Source of the DNA: an uncultured Chloroflexia bacterium
GTDB lineage: Bacteria; Chloroflexota; Anaerolineae; JAAYZQ01
DNA length: 64,000 nt
NCBI GenBank assembly: GCA_963700285.1
Contig: CAVOXA010000010.1
Location: 96,001 to 160,000 of the forward strand
Reading direction: 5' to 3'
This document shows, in pieces, positions 21,858-33,304 of the stretch. How positions within the stretch are numbered: the stretch's first letter is position 1; each line of letters opens with the position of its first letter. The notes below the pieces were generated by a model. It had not been told where the DNA came from, ran no database searches, and worked only from the letters and a program-made list of their open reading frames with translations. The position numbers were made by a program, and so were the translations under genes.

Positions 21858-21883
21858 GTTTGTGCAAAAGAAACGACCCAAGC

Positions 21884-21913
21884 AGGGCTGCCCCTTGCGG
21901 GGGCAGCCCTTTT
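21884..21913 (+). terminator. Intrinsic terminator
   Basis: AGGGCTGCCCC-loop-GGGGCAGCCCT followed by TTT. Confidence 0.85.
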
Positions 21914-21958
21914 CCTTCGCTCATCGTGGCGGAAGGTTCTGAACACAAGGACGACACC

Positions 21959-22705
21959 ATGGCAGAAGAATTGACAAGCGAGTTGGACCTGAACGAGGAA
22001 AGCCTCTGCCCCGAATGCGGCGCAGCCATGGATGAAGGCGACATGGTCTGCCCCCAGTGCGGGGCTGAATTTGGCTACTATTGTCCCGAGTGTGACGAGG
22101 AGGTTCCCGCCGACGCCTGCGTCTGTCCCCACTGCGGCGCAGAGATGGATGAGGGCTTTGAAAATGAGGGTGAATCCGAGCCGGAGGGAGAGCGAGCAGC
22201 TAACGGTACGAACTGCGGTGAGTCCATAGATAACGAGGACAAAAAGTGCCCCGAATGCGGCGCAGTCATGGATGAAGGCGATACAGTCTGCCCCCAGTGC
22301 GGGGCTGAATTTGGCTACTATTGCCCCGAGTGTGACGAGGAGGTTCCCGCGGACGCCTTCATCTGTCCCCACTGCGGTGCAGAGATGGATGAGGGCTTTG
22401 AAGATGAGGAGGAAGACGCGGAACATGGGGGTGAGTCCAATCCGGAGGGGGAGCGAGCGGCTTTCTGTGCGAATTGCGGTGAGCCCATAGAAAAAGAGGA
22501 CAAAGAGTGCCCCGCCTGCGGCGTGGATTTGTGTCCCGATTGCGGAAGCCCGCTGGAAGAGGACGACGAGGTCTGCCCAGAATGCGGCGCCGAGTTCGCG
22601 TTTTCCTGTCCAGACTGTGGTGAGGATCTCCCGGCCAACGCAGTGATCTGTTCCCACTGCGGCTATAACTTCGTGGACGAGGAGGAGGAGGAGGAGGATG
22701 ACTGA
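21959..22705 (+). CDS. Acidic poly-zinc-ribbon protein (14 CxxC)
   Basis: Repeated CPxCG knuckles, very Asp/Glu-rich; AAGGA RBS before ATG 21959. Confidence 0.85.
   Translation: MAEELTSELDLNEESLCPECGAAMDEGDMVCPQCGAEFGYYCPECDEEVPADACVCPHCGAEMDEGFENEGESEPEGERAANGTNCGESIDNEDKKCPECGAVMDEGDTVCPQCGAEFGYYCPECDEEVPADAFICPHCGAEMDEGFEDEEEDAEHGGESNPEGERAAFCANCGEPIEKEDKECPACGVDLCPDCGSPLEEDDEVCPECGAEFAFSCPDCGEDLPANAVICSHCGYNFVDEEEEEEDD
22007..22504 (+). repeat. Intragenic tandem duplication, 240-bp period
   Basis: Lines at 22021 and 22261 are nearly identical; the second copy carries an 18-nt insertion. Confidence 0.92.
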
Positions 22706-23540
22706 GGGCGGCATCGACCTCATCCTCCTGAAGCCTGACCCGGTCCTTGAGGGCCCCGACACCACCCGCTGCCCGGCCTGCGGCACCGGCGTCTATCTCA
22801 ACGATGGCATCTGCTCAGCCTGCGGCCAGGTCTATTGTCCGGGATGCGGGCATTCCCTCGAAGATGATACGTTTGAGGACGAGGGCCTCGAAGACGAGGG
22901 CCTCGAGGACGAGGGCCTCGAGGACGACGATACCTGCCCGAACTGCGGCCTGGCGCTGAGCTTTCCCTGTCCTGGCTGTGACTTTCCGGTTGCCAGCGGG
23001 GCCAAGCGCTGCCCCGAGTGCGGCGTCCTTTTTGTACTGCGCTGCCCCGCCTGCGATGTACGCATCCTTGATGGAGCCGAGGCATGTCCCGATTGTGGCC
23101 AAGCCTTCGCGCTGGAAAGGCGCACGCTGGCAACTATTTTTGCCTCGGAGCCTGGGCTAGTCTTGCTCAAGTGTCCGGCCTGCATGGTCAAGTTCGGCAG
23201 CGAGATGGGAGCCTGTCCCGGGTGTAACCAACGCGTCTGCCCCGAGTGCTATCTACTGTTAAAGGACGAGGAACTCGATTGTCCCCACTGCGGCTGCCAT
23301 GCCGCCCGGCCCTGCCCTGCCTGCAAAGCCAGCGTAGGTTTGGGGTCCCCAGAGTGTCCTGCTTGCGGCCAATCCCTCTGTCCAGCTTGTGGCGCCGGAG
23401 TAGGGGAGAACGACACAAACTGCCCCAGGTGCGGCACAGAACTGGAGTTGTGTTGCCCCCAATGTGGCGCCGACCTGGAGCCTCAGATGATGCACTGCCC
23501 CGCATGCGGCCTTAGCTTTGGCCCAGACGACCCGGACTGA
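22698..23540 (+). CDS. Poly-zinc-ribbon protein (18 CxxC)
   Basis: 18 CxxC knuckles; start overlaps upstream stop (ATGACTGA); poly-GAG upstream provides the RBS. Confidence 0.85.
   Translation: MTEGGIDLILLKPDPVLEGPDTTRCPACGTGVYLNDGICSACGQVYCPGCGHSLEDDTFEDEGLEDEGLEDEGLEDDDTCPNCGLALSFPCPGCDFPVASGAKRCPECGVLFVLRCPACDVRILDGAEACPDCGQAFALERRTLATIFASEPGLVLLKCPACMVKFGSEMGACPGCNQRVCPECYLLLKDEELDCPHCGCHAARPCPACKASVGLGSPECPACGQSLCPACGAGVGENDTNCPRCGTELELCCPQCGADLEPQMMHCPACGLSFGPDDPD
22875..22927 (+). repeat. 15-bp coding tandem repeat (EDEGL)x3.5
   Basis: GARGACGAGGGCCTC repeated. Confidence 0.9.
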
Positions 23541-24740: not shown

Positions 24741-25128
24741 CGTCCTATACCGCTCCTTGATCTAAACTCGGATACCAGTATAGGGGAGAATGCGCTGTTG
24801 GTCAATTCCAGCGGACACCCCATCTGGGTGGGTGAGGGACCCCAGCTATTGCTAGATCTCCGCACAGGGTGAGAAAACCTACAGCAACCGCCAGTATTTG
24901 TATGCTACAATTCAACAGATGGGACCGCGCACGATCCGGGTACAGTCACAGGTAGCACAGCAGAACCATCTCGTAATCCCAACCTATCTCTTGGGATAGA
25001 CTTGCAGTAATTTGCAGAGAATCGTCGAGGGTGGGGTAAGGAACCTATGCTCCGGGGCGTCCAAACTACTGTATGGGGCCGCAGACCTGATGTTTGCCGG
25101 CATGCTCATCAAGGAGAGGAGATACGAA

Positions 25129-25815
25129 ATGGGAGAATCTGCAGAATCCGTACCCATCAGACCCTTCGCCTGGGAGGAGCCCCTGCGCCGGATCGCGTTG
25201 GTGATCGCTCGCCTGGGCCTGGCCTTTCTTTTCTTCTCGCAGCTCTTTTGGAAGCTTCCCCCCCAGTTCGGCTGTGGCTCTGAATTCGACTTTTCCAGCG
25301 AGGGACCCGATGGCGCGCTGATCCGCAAGAGTGGCCTGTGTGACTGGGTCGGTCTTGAATCTGTCTATGCTGACCGCGAACGGACTTTCTTTGTGATTCC
25401 CAGCTCTGATGGCGGTACCCTTTTCTCCATTGGCCTGGATCCACTGGTCAAGCTCAATGGAGTCTTTGTCAGCCATGTCGTGCAACCAACCTTTGGCGCC
25501 TTCGGCTGGGCGATCTTTCTTGCCGAAGCCTTCGTCGCGGCCACGCTCTTCCTGGGTCTTCTCAGTCGTGGGGGCGCGCTCGTTGCACTCTTGCTGTCGC
25601 TCCAACTGATGCTGGGTCTGGCCGGCGCCTGGGATCCCGCGACCCATCTCAACGAGTGGGAATGGAGCTACCACCTGATGGTCCTGCTGTCGCTCGTCCT
25701 GCTTGGTATTACTCCCGGCCGCATCTTTGGGCTGGATGCACTGCTAAGACCCCGTCAGGCTGCCAGCGCCGCCCGCGGCCGATGGCTGGCCAAACTGTAC
25801 CTAGCTCTCAGCTAG
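25129..25815 (+). CDS. DoxX/TQO small subunit DoxD-like membrane protein
   Basis: RLGLAFLFFSQLFWKLPP, EAFVA..LFLG..SR, EWEWSY; AAGGAGAGGAG RBS. Confidence 0.85.
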   Translation: MGESAESVPIRPFAWEEPLRRIALVIARLGLAFLFFSQLFWKLPPQFGCGSEFDFSSEGPDGALIRKSGLCDWVGLESVYADRERTFFVIPSSDGGTLFSIGLDPLVKLNGVFVSHVVQPTFGAFGWAIFLAEAFVAATLFLGLLSRGGALVALLLSLQLMLGLAGAWDPATHLNEWEWSYHLMVLLSLVLLGITPGRIFGLDALLRPRQAASAARGRWLAKLYLALS

Positions 25816-25872
25816 CACCACCACTTGGGTAGCCCTGTAACGCTGCCCCACCCTGGTACATAGGAGACGTAA

Positions 25873-26721
25873 ATGGTTCTTTCCAGAACGCTTGCAGGAC
25901 CCGCAACAGACACTGCTGGCAGCCCGACCGGCGAAGGGACACCGTTCGTTTGGAAACTGTGGGTTTATACCAACTATGATTGCAACCTGAGTTGTACCTA
26001 TTGCGTGGCCGAGTCCAGCCCGCGTGCTGCGCGTAGAGGACTGGACCTGGAGACCGTACAGCGGCTCGTGGACGAGGCCATTGCGCTGGGCTTTGGCCAC
26101 CTGCTCTTTACCGGCGGCGAGCCCTTCATCCTGGACGATATCTATGATATGCTGGCCTACGCCTCAGCCCGGGCTCAGACAACCGTCCTGACAAATGCCA
26201 TGCTGCTGCACGGCAGTCGCTTGGAACGACTGGCAGCCATCGCCAGCGACAGGCTGACGGTTCAGGTAAGCCTGGATGGCGCCCGGCCCGAGCACCACGA
26301 CGTCTATCGCGGCGCGGGTACCTGGGCCAAGACCATGGAGGGCATCCAGCGCCTGCAGGTGCGCGGACTGCACCTGCGTCTGTCTACGACCGAGACGCCG
26401 GCCAATAGCGACTACCTGGCGGAATTGTACGCACTCCGTCGTTCCCTGGGTATCCCCGAAAAGGATCACGTTATCCGGCCGCTGGCCCACCGGGGCTTTG
26501 CCCGGGAAGGGACGGAGGTAACCGTCGACAACTTGATGCCCGAGGTTACCGTCACTGCGGATGGCGTCTTCTGGCATCCGCTGGCCTCGCCCAGTAGCTG
26601 TGACATGCAGGTGAGTAACAGGATCTTTCCCCTGGCCACGGCTGTGGACTGTATCCAACTGCAACTCGACCAGTTGCTGCGCGCCAAGCACGGGCTGCCA
26701 CAGGCCATCACTTGAGGCTGA
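25873..26721 (+). CDS. Radical SAM protein (Rv1681/MoeX-like), probable penultimate selenocysteine (...QAIT-U-G*)
   Basis: YTNYDCNLSCTYC, FTGGEPF, LTNA, QVSLDG, DGVFWHP. ORF-track stop TGA 26713 is followed by GGC TGA and a SECIS-like hairpin. Ends at 26715 if not recoded. Confidence 0.85.
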
Positions 26722-26727
26722 GCCGCG

Positions 26728-26744
26728 GGCTTCTGGAGGAAGCC
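26728..26744 (+). promoter_or_regulatory. Candidate bacterial SECIS element
   Basis: GGCTTC-TGGAG-GAAGCC stem-loop starting 12 nt after the in-frame UGA, with G in the apical loop. Confidence 0.6.
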
Positions 26745-26756
26745 GAGAACAGTACG

Positions 26757-26779
26757 CATCCTGGACGGCGTCCAGGATG
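26757..26779. terminator. 10-bp perfect hairpin (terminator or stabiliser)
   Basis: CATCCTGGAC-GGC-GTCCAGGATG; no adjacent U-tract. Confidence 0.45.
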
Positions 26780-26851: not shown

Positions 26852-27361
26852 TTGACCAAGACCATGCGCGAGGCGCTCAGCCGCCAGGCGCCGCTATGGC
26901 CCATCGCCCTGAGCCGCGTGCTCATCGGAGTGCTGTGGTTGGGGACGCTGCGCTGGAAGCTACCACCGGACTTTGCCCCCGCATCGGGACGGGGGTTATT
27001 TGACTGGCTGCTATTGGAGGCCCAGTACCCGGCCTTTGGTTTCTATGGCGCTTTTGTCGAGTCGATCGTGATTCCCAACTTTTCCCTGTTCGCCTGGCTG
27101 GTCTTTTTGAGCGAGCTAGGCGTGGGGCTGCTGCTGGTGACGGGCACGTGGACGCGCCTGGCAGGCGCCCTGGGCCTTCTCATGTCCCTCAACCTGGGGA
27201 TCGGACTGCTGGAGGTTCCGGGCGAATGGCCCTGGTCCTACATCATGATGGCCATGTGGCACGGGCTGTTCGTGGTTGCGGCCGCAGGGCGCGTGCTGGG
27301 CGTCGATGCCTGGCTGCGCCGCCGGTTGCCCACCAAGTCCCTGTGGCTCGTCTTCACTTAG
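26852..27361 (+). CDS. DoxX/TQO small subunit DoxD-like membrane protein (paralog)
   Basis: RVLIGVLW..LRWKLPP, ELGVG..L.TG.WTR, EWPWSY; TTG start with GGAGG RBS. Confidence 0.85.
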   Translation: MTKTMREALSRQAPLWPIALSRVLIGVLWLGTLRWKLPPDFAPASGRGLFDWLLLEAQYPAFGFYGAFVESIVIPNFSLFAWLVFLSELGVGLLLVTGTWTRLAGALGLLMSLNLGIGLLEVPGEWPWSYIMMAMWHGLFVVAAAGRVLGVDAWLRRRLPTKSLWLVFT

Positions 27362-27409
27362 CCGAGTTCCCTTGATGGGCAAAGGTTTCGCAGCTCACGA
27401 TCTGTCTCC

Positions 27410-27736
27410 ATGGTAGCTGTCGCCGGTCTTGCCGTCACTGCCGCCCTGACTGAGGTTGGCTTCCTGGCCCCGGTACGGACGTTTCTGCAAACGCCCAGTA
27501 TTATGTCCCGGCCGGATGGACAGGGCCCGACCTTGTCTATGCCCCTGGGCCTGCCCAACCCCTGGCTCATCATAATACCTGTGGTACTCCTGGCCGGCTA
27601 TTGGCTGCTGCGCAGCCCCCACAATTGCATGCAGGCCCTGGAAAGCCTGCCGCGCTGGGCTGAGGGCCAGGGACACACCGTCGTAAACCGCCAGGACCTG
27701 GGCGATGGCGTGTGGCAGATCGTGATACGAAAGTAA
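27410..27736 (+). pseudogene. Fused remnant of a YeeE/YedE-type transporter and a TusA/YeeD/YedF-type protein
   Basis: First part resembles the mid-section of YeeE (…GPTL..LG..NPW). Last 38 aa (NCMQALESLPRWAEGQGHTV...GVWQIVIRK) resemble the C-half of YeeD/YedF but lack the N-terminal CP motif. Confidence 0.55.
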
Positions 27737-27740
27737 CAAG

Positions 27741-29189
27741 ATGCCTATCATTGAGATTCTTTACGCGGTCTGTGCAATCCTGCTCGGCCTGTACGGCCTG
27801 AACAACCTGATATTGACCGGGATCTACCTGCGGCACCGCAACGATCCTGTGCCAGAGCCCCCGGCGCCAGCAGACTGGCCCCTGGTCACAGTTCAACTCC
27901 CCATTTACAATGAACTGCACACCGCCGAGCGGCTGCTGACCACCGTGGCGGCCCTGGACTATCCGCGCCACCGGCTGGAGATCCAGGTACTGGACGATTC
28001 CACCGATGCCACCCGTGAACTGGCGGCCCGCGTCGTCAAAGGTCTCCGAAACCAGGGCATTGACATCGTCCATGTTGTACGGCAGGATCGGTCGGGCTTC
28101 AAGGCGGGGGCGCTAGCGGCTGGCATGGACCGGGCCAGGGGCGAACTGATCGCCATCTTTGACGCCGACTTTATGCCGGCAAGCGACTTTTTGCGGCGGG
28201 TGGTGCCCCACTTTGCCGATCCTGCCGTAGGCTGCGTCCAGACCCGTTGGGGCCACGTCAACCGCGACTATTCGGCTTTTACCCAGACCCAGGCCCTGGG
28301 CGTCGATGGGCATTTTGTCGTCCAACAGGCGGCGCGGGGCCAGGCCGGGCTGTTTCTCAACTTTAACGGTACGGCTGGCGCTTGGCGGCGGGCCTGTATT
28401 GAGGATGCCGGCGGCTGGCAGGGAGATACGCTCACCGAGGACCTGGATCTCAGCTACCGCGCCCAATTGCGCGGCTGGCGGATCGCCTATCTACCAGAGG
28501 TCGTCGTTCCCGCAGAGTTACCGGCCCAGATCAGCGCCTTCAAACGGCAGCAGGCCCGCTGGGCCCAGGGCAGCATCGAGACAGCAAGAAAGCTCATAGG
28601 CCCCCTGCTCCGTTCCGGCCAGCCCCGGCATGTCAAGTTGGAGGGCGTTCTGCACTTGACCGGGTACCTGGTCCACCCCCTCATGCTGTCGATCATCTTG
28701 CTCACCTTCCCCATGAGCTTCTCCCGCAGTTGGGTTGTGCTGGGCATCCCCTGGCTGATGGTCACCGCTGCGGGTCCTCCCCTGTTATACATTGTGGCCC
28801 AGACCGGTGGTGGCACAGAATCACGCCGTCGCCTACGATTCCTGCCCCTATTGGTCATGTTGGGCATGGGCTTGAGCCTGAGCAATACGGGGGCCGTGCT
28901 ACGGGGGGCGCTGGGAATCACCCGAAGCTTCCAGCGCACGCCCAAGTTTGACCTGCAGCAGTCAGCGGATGCCTGGGTCGGCAGCGCCTATGCCCTGAGG
29001 GGAGACTGGCTGGTCCTGGGTGAGGCGGCGCTGGCCATCATGGTCCTGCTGATGTTTGCCATGCCCAACATCCGTTGGACCTTTGTGCCCTGGTTGCTCC
29101 TGTACGCCGGCGGCTTTGGCTATGTGGCCGCCATTAATCTCCACCAGACCCACCAATTGCGCCGATGGCTGGCCAAGCAGCCCAGATGA
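27741..29189 (+). CDS. Processive GT2 glycosyltransferase (cellulose synthase-like)
   Basis: VTVQLPIYNE, LDDSTD, GFKAGAL, IFDADF, TEDLD, QQARWAQG. Confidence 0.95.
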   Translation: MPIIEILYAVCAILLGLYGLNNLILTGIYLRHRNDPVPEPPAPADWPLVTVQLPIYNELHTAERLLTTVAALDYPRHRLEIQVLDDSTDATRELAARVVKGLRNQGIDIVHVVRQDRSGFKAGALAAGMDRARGELIAIFDADFMPASDFLRRVVPHFADPAVGCVQTRWGHVNRDYSAFTQTQALGVDGHFVVQQAARGQAGLFLNFNGTAGAWRRACIEDAGGWQGDTLTEDLDLSYRAQLRGWRIAYLPEVVVPAELPAQISAFKRQQARWAQGSIETARKLIGPLLRSGQPRHVKLEGVLHLTGYLVHPLMLSIILLTFPMSFSRSWVVLGIPWLMVTAAGPPLLYIVAQTGGGTESRRRLRFLPLLVMLGMGLSLSNTGAVLRGALGITRSFQRTPKFDLQQSADAWVGSAYALRGDWLVLGEAALAIMVLLMFAMPNIRWTFVPWLLLYAGGFGYVAAINLHQTHQLRRWLAKQPR

Positions 29190-30648
29190 GCACCAGGTAC
29201 AAGGGTACGTATTCCACAAGTCGAACCGCGTCATACTCGCGCGGGTTGGCCGGGTCCTGGTAGGTCAGGTAGGACAGGGCCACAACGGCGGAAAAATAGA
29301 TGCCCGGCAGGAGAAAGCGGCTGATTCTGCTGTCTTCCGAGCGCGTGGGAGTGAGAAAAGGCAACAGAGGGATGAGCAAGGTCACGTACCAGGGATGGAC
29401 CGTCGTCGCCAGGAGCAGATAGGCAGCCAGGGGGACAATAGCCAGTCTCAGGAGGGCCAAATTGCCATCACAGCGGCGGCTCCAGCGCCAGACGCCCGCC
29501 AGCACCAAACCCAGCATGCCCAGCGAGAGCAGCTTCGCAGTCCGGATCGGCCCAGGCCCGACAGCCTCCAGCGGTACGGCCCCTGGCGTTGGGTAGCCAG
29601 AGATCGCCACCTCCAGCCAATGATACAGCCCGCCATTATAGTTCCAATAGGTGCTATAAATGCGGATTGCACCAAATAGCCCTGTACCATCCAGCGGGCC
29701 CAGCAGGCCCCATCCTCCGCCCAGGGCAAAAGCAGCGCTGATCGCCACGACCAGCCCACCGTAAACCAGCACATAGCGCCAACCCCAACGCCGGCCTACC
29801 ACCGGCAGCAGCAGTGCCGGCAGAACTTTTGTCAGCGTCGCCGCAGCCAGCGCCACCACCGATAGCAGGCGCGAGTGCGCGGATACAAAGGGCCGGCGGT
29901 CCCCTGTGGCCGGCACGACGAGAGCCCACAGCGCGGCCATCATCAGGCAGATCATCAGCGCATCCACGACATGGGCGCCATGGGCGAACTCTACGACGAC
30001 CAGAGGGTTCCACAGGTAGATGAGCACCCGCGTGCCTGGCAGCCCGAGCCGGCGCAGCAGATCCATCACCAACGCACCCGTCAGCAGGTCCAGGAGTACG
30101 GCAGTGACCTGGAAAGCCAGGGCACTGCCGGGGACCAGGCGGTACACGGCGGCGAAAAGCGCCTGGGCTGCCGGCAAGTACGGCGAGGCCATCCAGTTAT
30201 TGTTTACTAGGGTCCGTTGGGGCGAATCAAGGGCATCGAGCAGCGGAGAATTCACCGGCAGCGCGTAGGGGCTTATGCCGGCGTTGGCCAGCCGGCCATC
30301 CCAGATGTAGCGCCAGATATCGTCGGACAGCGTGGGCATGGTGAACAACAACGTGGTACGAAAGACCAGCCCCAGGCCCCAGATGAGAAAGAGCGCCCTC
30401 CGCCGCTCCGGCTGTCGCAGCGACCACCAGACGGCCAGCCCGTAGAACACAAAAGCAGCCGCATACAGCCCCAGAAAGGGCACCGTCCGCTGCCGTAGGT
30501 TCCCCTGGGTGACCATGCCAGCGAAGCACACTTCGACCGCCAGACCCAGCCCGGCAAGGATCCACGGGGCCCGGATCCCCCTAGCGCCTCGGAGATCCTC
30601 TACCTGTAGAGGGAGGCCACCCCGGGGCCCTTCAGATACCTGAAGCAT
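29134..30648 (-). CDS. GT-C (GT87/DUF2029-like) membrane glycosyltransferase
   Basis: LSDDIWRYIWDG, SPYLP, YLWNPLVVVEFAHGAH, TTVHPWY; start uncertain. Confidence 0.88.
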   Translation of the reverse strand: MLQVSEGPRGGLPLQVEDLRGARGIRAPWILAGLGLAVEVCFAGMVTQGNLRQRTVPFLGLYAAAFVFYGLAVWWSLRQPERRRALFLIWGLGLVFRTTLLFTMPTLSDDIWRYIWDGRLANAGISPYALPVNSPLLDALDSPQRTLVNNNWMASPYLPAAQALFAAVYRLVPGSALAFQVTAVLLDLLTGALVMDLLRRLGLPGTRVLIYLWNPLVVVEFAHGAHVVDALMICLMMAALWALVVPATGDRRPFVSAHSRLLSVVALAAATLTKVLPALLLPVVGRRWGWRYVLVYGGLVVAISAAFALGGGWGLLGPLDGTGLFGAIRIYSTYWNYNGGLYHWLEVAISGYPTPGAVPLEAVGPGPIRTAKLLSLGMLGLVLAGVWRWSRRCDGNLALLRLAIVPLAAYLLLATTVHPWYVTLLIPLLPFLTPTRSEDSRISRFLLPGIYFSAVVALSYLTYQDPANPREYDAVRLVEYVPLYLVLIWAAWPAIGAIGGSGGD

Positions 30649-30663: not shown

Positions 30664-32202
30664 TCACCTCGGTACTTCCTCACGAAACACGGGAGCCAGC
30701 ATCTGGTCCACCGGCGCGTACCGGTCTGTGAGCGTCACCGCAAGACCTTCGGCCAGCAGGGCTTCGAGCTCATCAGCGTTGAGCACCTGATTCGCCAGGA
30801 GCGTAACGCCGTCGCCCGCGTCAAACGCCGGAAGGGCAGCCCGGTCCAGAGGCACATCACTGGCAATAATCACAAAGGTGCTGCGCGTCGTTCGGCGCCA
30901 GGCCTCGATGGCGGGCGCCAGGTAGACGTGACGGAAGGTCTGTTGCAAGGTGCGGACATAGGCACGCAGGAAACGCCCTCGGGGGCCGTCGACGATATTG
31001 ACTACGTACAAGCCATCGTCCGCCAGCCATGCCCGGACCCGGTCGTTGAACTCCTTGGTAGTCAAGTGGTAGGGCACCGAAAAGTCATTGAAGGCATCGC
31101 CCATAATCAGGTCATACACGGTCACCGGCTCCCGCTCCAGGTAGAGGCGAGCATCCTCGTTGTAGCTCACGACCTCCGTGTCGCGCTCCAGTCCCAGGTA
31201 ATCGTACGCCACCTCGGTGACCCCGGGATCAATTTCGATGACGTGGACGTCGCTGCCTGGATAAGTGGCCTCCATATACTTGGGAAAAGTATACCCTCCG
31301 CCTCCGATAAAGAGCGCTCGCATGTGGTCATCCTGACTGGCCCGGTAGGCGGTGGCCTCGGCATACATCTGTTCGTAGCCATAGACCAACTTTGTTGGAT
31401 CATCCAGCGAAGTATAACTATGGACCAGCCGATCCAGTGTCAGGACACGGACAGGCTGGCCATCCCGCTCCTGTTCGTGGACCTTGATGCAAAAGTAGTT
31501 GGTCTCGCGCGTACAGGGGGCGTGCAACCACTCCAGATTGGCAGCCACTACCGTGCCGCCAGCCAGAATCAAGGCGGCCAACAGCAACCACAGGGGGCGG
31601 CGGCCCACCAGAAACAACAGGCCCAGCACGAGCAGGACCACCGCCACACCCCAAACGATAGCATGGGTACCCAACCATGAGATCAACAAAAAGCCGGTGG
31701 CAAAGGTCCCCACGATGCTGCCCACAGTACTGGCAGCATAGATGCTGCCCACCGTCCTACCCGTTTTGCTCAAGTCGTGCACGGCCAGCTTGGCCACAAC
31801 AGGCGAAACAGTCCCCAGGATCAAGCTGGGGACAAAGAACAACGCCGCAACCAAGATCAGGATCTGGATGATGATCGGCCAGTCGCCCGGCGTCAGCTTT
31901 CCCAGCACATCCACCGCCAAGATGCCAAAGGAGGACAGGCCGGCCAACACAAAGATGCTGCCCAGCATCTGCAAAGAAGCCCATCGGTCTCCCAGCCTCC
32001 CCCCCAGGTAATTCCCCAGGCTGATCCCGGCTAGCACCACCCCAATGATGCTGGTCCAGGTATAGAGCGACACGCCAACGTAGGGCGCCACGATCCGGCC
32101 AGCAACCAGCTCCAAGATCATGGTGCACCCGCTCGAGACAAAGACGATCAGGTATGGATGCCAAAGCCATGGGTGCAGCGGCGCTTGGGAGGTGGCTTCC
32201 AT
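30664..32202 (-). CDS. Fused MFS/spermidine synthase-like methyltransferase
   Basis: Seven TM (ELVAGRIVAPYVG...WTSIIGV) plus LFIGGGG, IEIDP, EDAR, GDAF, PYHLTT, LTDRYAPV. Confidence 0.92.
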   Translation of the reverse strand: MEATSQAPLHPWLWHPYLIVFVSSGCTMILELVAGRIVAPYVGVSLYTWTSIIGVVLAGISLGNYLGGRLGDRWASLQMLGSIFVLAGLSSFGILAVDVLGKLTPGDWPIIIQILILVAALFFVPSLILGTVSPVVAKLAVHDLSKTGRTVGSIYAASTVGSIVGTFATGFLLISWLGTHAIVWGVAVVLLVLGLLFLVGRRPLWLLLAALILAGGTVVAANLEWLHAPCTRETNYFCIKVHEQERDGQPVRVLTLDRLVHSYTSLDDPTKLVYGYEQMYAEATAYRASQDDHMRALFIGGGGYTFPKYMEATYPGSDVHVIEIDPGVTEVAYDYLGLERDTEVVSYNEDARLYLEREPVTVYDLIMGDAFNDFSVPYHLTTKEFNDRVRAWLADDGLYVVNIVDGPRGRFLRAYVRTLQQTFRHVYLAPAIEAWRRTTRSTFVIIASDVPLDRAALPAFDAGDGVTLLANQVLNADELEALLAEGLAVTLTDRYAPVDQMLAPVFREEVPR

Positions 32203-32443
32203 CGTGATGGCGGCTGGGACGTCCTCTTTGCCTGTAGAATGGGATCTCGGTTCCACGGAGCCTCCTGGCGTCAAGCCTTTCGCTGGACTTGTGATCTGTC
32301 TCCTCGCACAAGTATGCCACAGAACTCCCAATCCTGCAACGGCGGCAGACTCGGACCACGAGTTGCTCCGCCCTGCATCTCCCGGCAACGCTCCCTGTTT
32401 CGCCATGCGATGCCATCTGTGGTAGAATAATCCCCGGTACGAA

Positions 32444-33304
32444 ATGGATTGGGTAGAGGAGCGAATTTTGAATCGTAACCTATTGTGGATAGTCTTGATC
32501 CTGGCAGCCTTGGTCCTGGCTGCCTGTGGAGGCGGGGCAGCGGGCAGCGAAGACGCTCCTGCCGCGAATCCCGCAGCCACTGTCGTGGAGGCAATGCAGC
32601 AGATGGGCCAAAGCGCGGGAATGGGGCCGGGCAGCGGCATGATGGGCCGCCATCACATCGCAGTCGCGGAGCCCTATGCCGGACTCTCCAATCCCGTAGA
32701 AAATGACGAGGCGTCACTGGACCGCGGCGCCGAGCAATATTCCACCCTGTGCGCCAGTTGCCACGGTGACGGCGGCATGGGCGACGGCCCGGCCGGGACG
32801 AGCCTTGATCCGGCCCCGGCGCCGGTCGCCCACACCAGCCAGATGCTGGGCGACGACCTGCTGTTCTGGCGGATCAGTGAAGGAGGCGTGGGGGAGCCCT
32901 TTAACTCTGCGATGCCGGCCTGGAAGGATTCCCTGGATGAGGAGGCCCGTTGGGACCTGATCAACTACATGCGAGCCCTGGGCCAGGGCCAGGTACAGCC
33001 CCGGCACGCGGCAGGCGGCGCTGCGTTTGACCCGGTGGTAGAACAGGCGGCTCGGACCGAAATGCTGGACCGAGGTGTGGAACAGGGTGTGATCAGCCCG
33101 GAGCAAGCCGAGGTCTTTGACCAGGTCCACAGCGCCATGGATGGCCTGACCGCCACGGGCGAAACGCAGCGCCTGGGCGGCATGGAACAGATGCGCGATG
33201 CACTGCTGGATGCCCTGGTCGAGGCGGGGACCATCACTCGCGAGCAGGCCGACGACTTTAACGAGATCCATGACCGGCTTGAAGAGGCTGGCTTGATGGA
33301 GTAG
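32444..33304 (+). CDS. Monoheme cytochrome c lipoprotein
   Basis: Lipobox LAAC, CASCH, axial Met in SAMPAW; helical C-terminal repeat (LVEAGTITREQAD); start may be TTG 32468. Confidence 0.9.
   Translation: MDWVEERILNRNLLWIVLILAALVLAACGGGAAGSEDAPAANPAATVVEAMQQMGQSAGMGPGSGMMGRHHIAVAEPYAGLSNPVENDEASLDRGAEQYSTLCASCHGDGGMGDGPAGTSLDPAPAPVAHTSQMLGDDLLFWRISEGGVGEPFNSAMPAWKDSLDEEARWDLINYMRALGQGQVQPRHAAGGAAFDPVVEQAARTEMLDRGVEQGVISPEQAEVFDQVHSAMDGLTATGETQRLGGMEQMRDALLDALVEAGTITREQADDFNEIHDRLEEAGLME

Follow-up and report, generated by a model that had tools for sequence, protein, structure and literature searches.

The window, a stretch of 64,000 nucleotides from an uncultured Chloroflexia bacterium, carries a radical SAM gene on its forward strand at 25873–26721, with a Shine-Dalgarno-like AGGAG (25862–25866) 6 nt 5′ of the ATG. 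The frame runs through 280 codons (25873–26712), the last four being CAG GCC ATC ACT (26701–26712), and into a TGA (26713–26715), a GGC (26716–26718) and a second TGA (26719–26721). From profile matches, alignment and an AlphaFold model (pLDDT 92), we predict a protein of 282 residues with a selenocysteine-glycine tail (280 residues if cut at the first TGA), in which the first TGA encodes selenocysteine (Sec) 281 and the segment 26716–26721 holds the last residue, Gly, and the true stop. The 280-residue product matches the radical SAM family PF04055 (E 7.5e-20). Three of its cysteines (C37, C41, C44) form the CxxxCxxC motif of the SAM-binding [4Fe-4S] cluster (25981–26004, forward strand), which is invariant in 34/34 aligned sequences. 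The first-pass annotation had described a protein without SPASM cysteines, and so it proved: PF13186 (SPASM) gives no match, the only other cysteines, C243 and C260, are not conserved in the 34-sequence alignment, and no conserved cysteine lies between the CxxxCxxC motif and the tail.

Wholly behind the true stop lies a predicted SECIS hairpin (26728–26744, forward strand), in which GGCTTC (26728–26733) pairs with GAAGCC (26739–26744) and a T-G pair closes a GGA loop, giving seven pairs in all. Both the ACT TGA GGC TGA ending and the stem starting 12 nt after the first UGA are in the sequence exactly as first described. A second inverted repeat, of ten perfect pairs (26757–26779, forward strand), stands between this hairpin and the next gene; it has no T-run, and in a related locus (L001) its arms are kept while its loop is changed. 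Assembly error at the tail was ruled out, because short-read contigs from two studies (X5 record 26 and X10 record 9) cover TGA-GGC-TGA with zero differences; either sequencing run could derive from the habitat of the source, and the X10 contigs, although from an RNA library, do not demonstrate transcription.

Two DoxD/DoxX-like membrane proteins flank the gene on the same strand, one at 25012–25815 (start codon uncertain; PF04173, E 1.4e-6) and one at 26852–27361 (PF04173, PF07681). They are followed by the remnant of a YeeE/YedE sulfur transporter-TusA fusion (27410–27736, forward strand), with a 108-residue in-frame product. Compared with the whole copy of 406 residues in L001, the remnant region (27398–27736) has lost about 380 and 570 bp in two deletions, and short-read contigs bridge both junctions, ruling out an assembly error there. 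Next come a GT2 glycosyltransferase (27741–29189, forward strand; PF13641, PF00535) and, on the reverse strand, a membrane protein that is probably a GT-C (GT87-like) transferase (29134–30648; no Pfam match, but 30% identity over 454 residues to L009:13581, which matches GT87) and a fused MFS/spermidine-synthase-like protein (30664–32640, start uncertain; over the NF037959 cut-off), the last of which adjoins only 2/45 family loci. Elsewhere in the window, at 21860–23540, two adjacent acidic proteins contain many zinc-ribbon repeats (PF12773, PF13240).

Reading of the first TGA

The C-terminus could be read in 61 homologous loci, all of which have either TGA (49) or Cys (12) in the column of the first TGA. 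GTDB genomes supplied 46 loci, from which L033 (a fragment) and L045 (another protein) were left out. In 37 of these a stop stands one or two small residues beyond the TGA (35 read directly; L025 and L044 are frameshifted upstream yet keep the tail), and in seven (L029, L038, L039, L040, L042, L043 and L046) the column is Cys. The family was also sought in 401 Actinomycetota genomes, whose tallies are the only ones here to include unpublished genomes, and 19 loci were found; after setting aside L055 (the same gene as L038) and L064 (an unpublished genome), 12 of the 17 kept read TGA-X-TGA and five carry Cys. Family loci were found in Chloroflexota, Actinomycetota, Myxococcota and Nitrospinota. 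In 48 TGA copies (the window's, the 35 and the 12), the residue after the TGA is G in 28, A in 15, S in two, V in two and T in one, and the codon after that is TGA in 30, TAG in nine, TAA in seven and AAG then TGA in two. Read-through of the second TGA as well was rejected: just 6 nt separate it from the hairpin, and 16/48 copies have TAA or TAG in its place.

A rival reading makes the first TGA an ordinary stop, or a Cys codon, with Gly-stop as a backup stop and the hairpin as a terminator. It agrees with the database, where all of the 120 closest proteins (the window's own included) are cut at the first TGA: 97 end in Thr, nine in Gln and none in Cys-Ala or Cys-Gly, because the DNA there reads TGA-X-stop. 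No residue U occurs among the 390 database proteins retrieved. The codon usage, however, argues the other way. The first stop is TGA in 49/49 non-Cys loci and never TAA or TAG, although genome-wide TGA terminates only 2798 of 5916 long coding-like frames, and the second stop varies freely. These 2798 frames also exclude TGA as a general sense codon.

A plain stop would, moreover, discard an otherwise invariant cysteine. Locus L053 scores 537 bits, above the Rv1681-family cut-off, and ends in Cys-Ala, as do 120/120 of its best homologues, all Rv1681-family proteins; the tail column of that family is thus judged from L053 and these homologues. The first-pass annotation had expected a penultimate Cys in Rv1681-like proteins and had proposed aligning it with the UGA, and the two do share a column. 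Among 150 cluster representatives, 27 have a complete C-terminus, 18 of them with Cys and nine without. On a 62-row tree, Sec and Cys must have been exchanged three times, with two of the exchanges forced by well-supported branches (L029 and L040, both Cys, are unlabelled there), and L040 (Cys) and L041 (TGA) are sister rows with support of 100/100, a direct swap that speaks against a plain stop.

Three oddities of the wider family may be recorded here. One database protein (P0284) ends in Phe-Arg-Trp-Gly, possibly a tail TGA called as Trp by a gene caller. The Cys forms L038, L039, L054 and L056–L058 are fused behind a metallophosphoesterase domain, and a further protein (P0050) is fused to DinB.

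The hairpin by itself is not unusually stable (z −0.22; 74/200 shuffles fold as well), which favours the plain-stop reading, and folding energy was rejected as proof of a SECIS element. What stands above chance is its conservation, not its stability. We scored hairpins by a rule of our own, distinct from bSECISearch and framed after the loci had been inspected: a stem of at least five pairs, a loop start 16–25 nt after the codon and a G in the first two loop positions. Such a hairpin follows 47/48 TGA copies against 303/2797 other TGA stops in the genome; 3/9 Cys copies also have one. Combined with a stop two codons on, it is found at 8/2797 TGA stops, one of them this radical SAM gene. Over the stem, 26 aligned TGA copies have 95.5% of cells paired and 6/6 pairs changed on both sides, and the covariation is 0.72 against 0.30 when shuffled and at most 0.21 when slid (26 copies, one row out of register). 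The SECIS-like hairpin with a G-containing apical loop reported at first is therefore borne out by the GGA loop, the 47/48 copies and the covarying stem. No T-run follows it, which speaks against a terminator. The same scan returned a second candidate with a Sec-X-stop ending, a class V aminotransferase that closes with TGA-CAC-TGA and an eight-pair hairpin (L075:2260–3732, reverse strand; C10:1608770 of the host genome); it passes the rule but was rejected as probably due to chance.

The host genome (G000, 89% complete) contains tRNA-Sec and a whole selA. Its selB (L049) and selD (L051) are present with several frameshifts each in the assembly, and selD carries an in-frame TGA of its own. The search for sel genes proposed in the first-pass annotation was answered in part, with selA whole, tRNA-Sec present and selB and selD broken as assembled. 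These breaks favour a plain stop. Those in selB are single-base indels when set against the whole selB of G001, a close relative, and look like long-read error. Across genomes, selA or selB occurs in 48/49 Sec-form against 8/12 Cys-form genomes (p 0.004), G392 being the only Sec-form genome with neither; within Actinomycetota the association is weak (p 0.04–0.06), because selB is common in the background (256–271 of 401 genomes). The host genome holds 74 UGA-plus-hairpin candidates. By their motifs, nine of these are presumably two FdhA, two PrdB-like, a DsbA-like, an MsrA, a UshA-like, an MvhD-like and a HesB-like protein, and the hairpin of the MvhD-like candidate has the same GGA loop as the radical SAM gene.

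Taken together, the Cys/UGA column, the conserved covarying hairpin and the co-occurrence with selA or selB strongly support the unannotated selenoprotein proposed at the outset. We consider it very likely that the first TGA is read as selenocysteine by SelB-dependent insertion, giving a tail that is likely Sec-Gly where relatives carry Cys-Ala or Cys-Gly. That it is a plain stop or a Cys codon appears very improbable.

Family placement, fold and novelty

The best NCBIfam match is the Rv1681 (MoeX) family, NF049973 (292.3 bits, E 3.6e-87, profile positions 72–313 of 326), whose curated cut-off of 380 bits is not reached by the protein as scored without its two tail residues. The first-pass annotation had compared it with Rv1681-like proteins; the family match stands, and the score below cut-off makes the protein, on profile evidence, a sister form of that family rather than a member. 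The two share core motifs, a DoxX-like neighbour and the tail column, where the UGA occupies the position of the family's penultimate Cys (Cys-Ala). They differ in that the family has Cys and a TusA-like N-terminus, whereas the gene here has UGA and lacks the N-terminal ~70 residues (profile 1–71); the family name bears no seleno label. The TusA likeness comes from weak matches in five of the 12 relatives examined, none of them reaching the Pfam cut-off (best E 8e-6); they start after the catalytic-cysteine region. Homologues of Rv1679 and Rv1680 flank Sec forms in L077, L081 and L089. In the host genome (89% complete), Rv1680 (NF049985) has no match, only distant acyl-CoA dehydrogenases being found.

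Identity with known Sec-containing radical SAM families was rejected on profile scores. The ArsS model (TIGR04167) gives 47.5 bits against a cut-off of 300, over the core only, and the TrsS model (NF045646) 33.5 bits against 490, while the gene is not among the 17 matches in the host genome to the CUAEP/CCAEP-tail model (NF040546, cut-off 500).

The tail (pLDDT 67–78) is the least confident part of the AlphaFold model. The model follows the folds of SkfB (Z 21.4) and SuiB (Z 21.2), with BlsE and viperin-like enzymes also at Z 19–21, all at ≤21% identity; EpeE is a further neighbour. No close solved structure was found by sequence (best E 4.7e-19) or by fold (≤26% identity). The tail of viperin folds over the barrel, and our model aligns to viperin-like chains through residues 256–258, which hints that the tail here may fold over the barrel in the same manner.

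Table 1 of a 2026 review (PMC13188914) lists 119 selenoprotein families, in which the entries named radical SAM are ArsS and TrsS; a Sec-containing family of the Rv1681 type is not among them. The table is not exhaustive, omitting the CUAEP-tail family that a preprint names. The main text and one supplement of BSepDB gave no match for such a family either, the accessible part of the deep-Sep paper makes no mention of radical SAM, and a literature search that did not extend to Haft and Tolstoy 2025 found nothing on Sec in this family. The gene thus probably represents a real and uncatalogued selenoprotein variant of the Rv1681 lineage, adding a further probable radical SAM selenoprotein family.

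In practical terms, the apparent stop of dozens of relatives is most likely Sec, and annotation probably drops a reactive tail. The database entries end two residues early, and a protein expressed from such an annotation would be missing a residue that never varies among the Cys forms. Positions at which Cys and Sec replace one another are usually catalytic; the tail thus points to the working residue of the uncharacterised Rv1681 family, reportedly a urinary marker of tuberculosis.

Gene neighbours and a proposed role

Around the family gene, 36 loci of at least 12 kb contain DUF2064 in 22, a small GT2 in 20, DoxD in 18, GT-C in ten, an epimerase in seven and a phosphorylase in four. In L081 and L089, a stretch within 18 kb brings together Rv1679/Rv1680 homologues, GT2, DUF2064, GT-C, epimerase, an AhpD-like gene, the Sec gene, DoxD and phosphorylase. 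The full phosphorylase-epimerase-GT2-DUF2064-GT-C cassette is linked to the family gene in L080, L081 and L089, and in L084 without the phosphorylase. In G288 it lies 12–18 kb from a Cys-form gene, and the best G288 matches of the neighbour epimerase (57%) and GT2 fall within it. Among Actinomycetota, DUF2064 occurs in 18/19 family-positive genomes (17/18 without the unpublished G165) against 89/382 others (p 2e-10, related genomes not being independent). An AhpD/CMD-like CxxC gene directly precedes the Sec form in 11/14 wide Actinomycetota loci (L076–L089) and is absent from the 45 other loci.

This cassette resembles the methylthioxylose (MTX) capping pathway, of which no radical SAM enzyme is known to form part. 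The mycobacterial version, which caps lipoarabinomannan, was reportedly described by Angala et al. 2017.

The likeness is that phosphorylase, epimerase, GT2, DUF2064 and GT-C stand together both in G288 and beside Sec forms. In the host genome, by contrast, the genes are scattered: GT2 and GT-C adjoin the gene, DUF2064 is about 540 kb away (C10:663 kb), and the epimerase and phosphorylase homologues are on other contigs. The distant DUF2064 belongs to a set at C10:656–666 kb (L072:5983–16360) comprising a small GT2, two radical SAM genes, a multiheme cytochrome c, DUF2079, DUF2064, NUDIX and a methyltransferase, and the GT2, radical SAM, DUF2079, DUF2064, NUDIX and methyltransferase genes of this set flank the Sec gene in L009 and L017. 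Against a cassette link stand also the rarity of the phosphorylase (4/36) and the 11/36 long loci with no cassette gene within about 8 kb; the other 25 have at least one. On balance, the gene neighbourhoods suggest that the enzyme probably acts upstream of an MTX-type cassette (phosphorylase, DUF2064, epimerase, GT2, GT-C), and it is predicted to help build an unusual cell-envelope sugar.

Upstream of the Sec gene in two loci (L028:81–1610; L034:3485 onward) lie ArsM-like methyltransferases of two domains, which have their own in-frame TGA and hairpin. These are probably selenoproteins split by gene callers.

What the tail might do can be set out as a chain of steps. The Sec tail would fold back over the active site and be loaded with sulfur or selenium by carriers of the TusA/DsrE type; the 5′-deoxyadenosyl radical would attack the tail-bound chalcogen to give 5′-thio- or 5′-seleno-adenosine, DoxD- or AhpD-like neighbours would reset the tail, and the 5′-substituted adenosine would then be phosphorolysed, activated, placed on a lipid and transferred outside. 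We put this forward tentatively: that a chalcogen-loaded tail is attacked in this way and reset by DoxD/AhpD-like partners may be so, at somewhat less than even chances for the chain as a whole. The sulfur-transfer step draws on the weak TusA-like N-termini, the whole YeeE-TusA in L001 and YedF/DsrE in L009 and L040. Against it, such carriers are patchy (YeeE and TusA in 1/40 loci, DsrE/YedF in 2/40), and the YeeE-TusA of the host genome is broken. The first-pass annotation had offered two roles for the tail, cluster ligand or carrier of a sulfur or selenium intermediate, and the gene neighbours favour the carrier. Two preprints, as far as they were accessible, describe related chemistry: ArsS adds 5′-deoxyadenosine to arsenic, and the Cys tail of ArsL holds its substrate.

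A Sec tail might instead donate a hydrogen atom or electron and so quench a radical, during epimerisation or deoxygenation of a nucleotide sugar or by capping the ArsL-like radical left when SAM becomes methylthioadenosine (MTA), with AhpD/DoxD-like proteins re-reducing it. Cys acts as such a donor in radical epimerases, and a single Cys or Sec suffices. The AhpD-like gene of the Actinomycetota loci and DoxD in half of the long loci fit this role, as do the fold neighbours EpeE, BlsE and viperin-like enzymes. However, at neutral pH a selenol is largely in its ionised form, and the proposal leaves the TusA-like fusion and the YeeE/DsrE neighbours unexplained. ArsL, according to the accessible part of its preprint, yields MTA, which is in keeping with the capping variant. 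We regard hydrogen donation as possible but unlikely.

The tail could also bind an As(III) species as in ArsS and ArsL, the cassette product then being arsenosugar-like. DUF2064 bears the NCBIfam name of an arsenosugar biosynthesis enzyme (TIGR04282), and the ArsM-like methyltransferases of L028 and L034 would suit such a pathway. Their matches, on the other hand, fall under the cut-offs, except when the two-domain read-through is scored with the ArsM subfamily model; the ArsS score is far below its threshold, no arsenic resistance genes are among the annotated neighbours, and the tail has a single Cys/Sec, whereas ArsL, in the part of the preprint available, binds arsenic with three. An arsenic substrate therefore seems improbable.

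Equally improbable is a tail Sec/Cys that ligates iron, whether by gating the SAM cluster at its open site or as a ligand of a shared auxiliary cluster. The SPASM/Twitch fold of SkfB and SuiB without their cysteines is in its favour, as the tail could substitute for them. But a second cluster within one chain is unlikely because only four Cys/Sec positions are conserved, too few to hold it, and the ArsL tail did not bind a cluster in the accessible preprint text.

Returning to chalcogen transfer, a bolder version is that the Rv1681 family in its multi-phylum Sec form relies on a mobile Sec/Cys tail, and not on a sacrificial cluster, to insert sulfur or selenium at C5′ of adenosine, which would be the missing first step of MTX-type capping. 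We hold this to be a possibility, still rather doubtful. If true, seleno-sugar-decorated cell surfaces would be possible in Sec-using bacteria; the genomic link to an MTX-type cassette in any case makes the function of the Rv1681 family testable in hosts that are harmless.

Comparison with known systems

Several known systems combine parts of this arrangement. Thioredoxin reductase has a C-U-G tail that forms a selenenylsulfide, and the first-pass annotation had drawn on its U-G ending. The penultimate Sec is indeed shared, but the likeness is only an analogy, because the tail here has no Cys-Sec pair. As described in the accessible sources, SaoC, KCU-star and UXX-star resemble thioredoxin reductase and our protein in having Sec at or near the C-terminus, and SaoC likewise has its SECIS beyond the stop; their folds are unrelated to the one described here.

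ArsS, TrsS and the CUAEP-tail proteins share the radical SAM fold with Sec, and ArsS, by NCBIfam naming, also travels with DUF2064 and GT2; the protein here is shorter and has one Sec, in penultimate position, and no further Cys in its tail. ArsL (NF040542, RCCLKC-tail), as far as its preprint is accessible, is alike in that the cysteines of its C-terminal tail keep the substrate in place for attack by the radical, and unlike in its three tail cysteines, As(III) substrate, ACP radical and other gene context.
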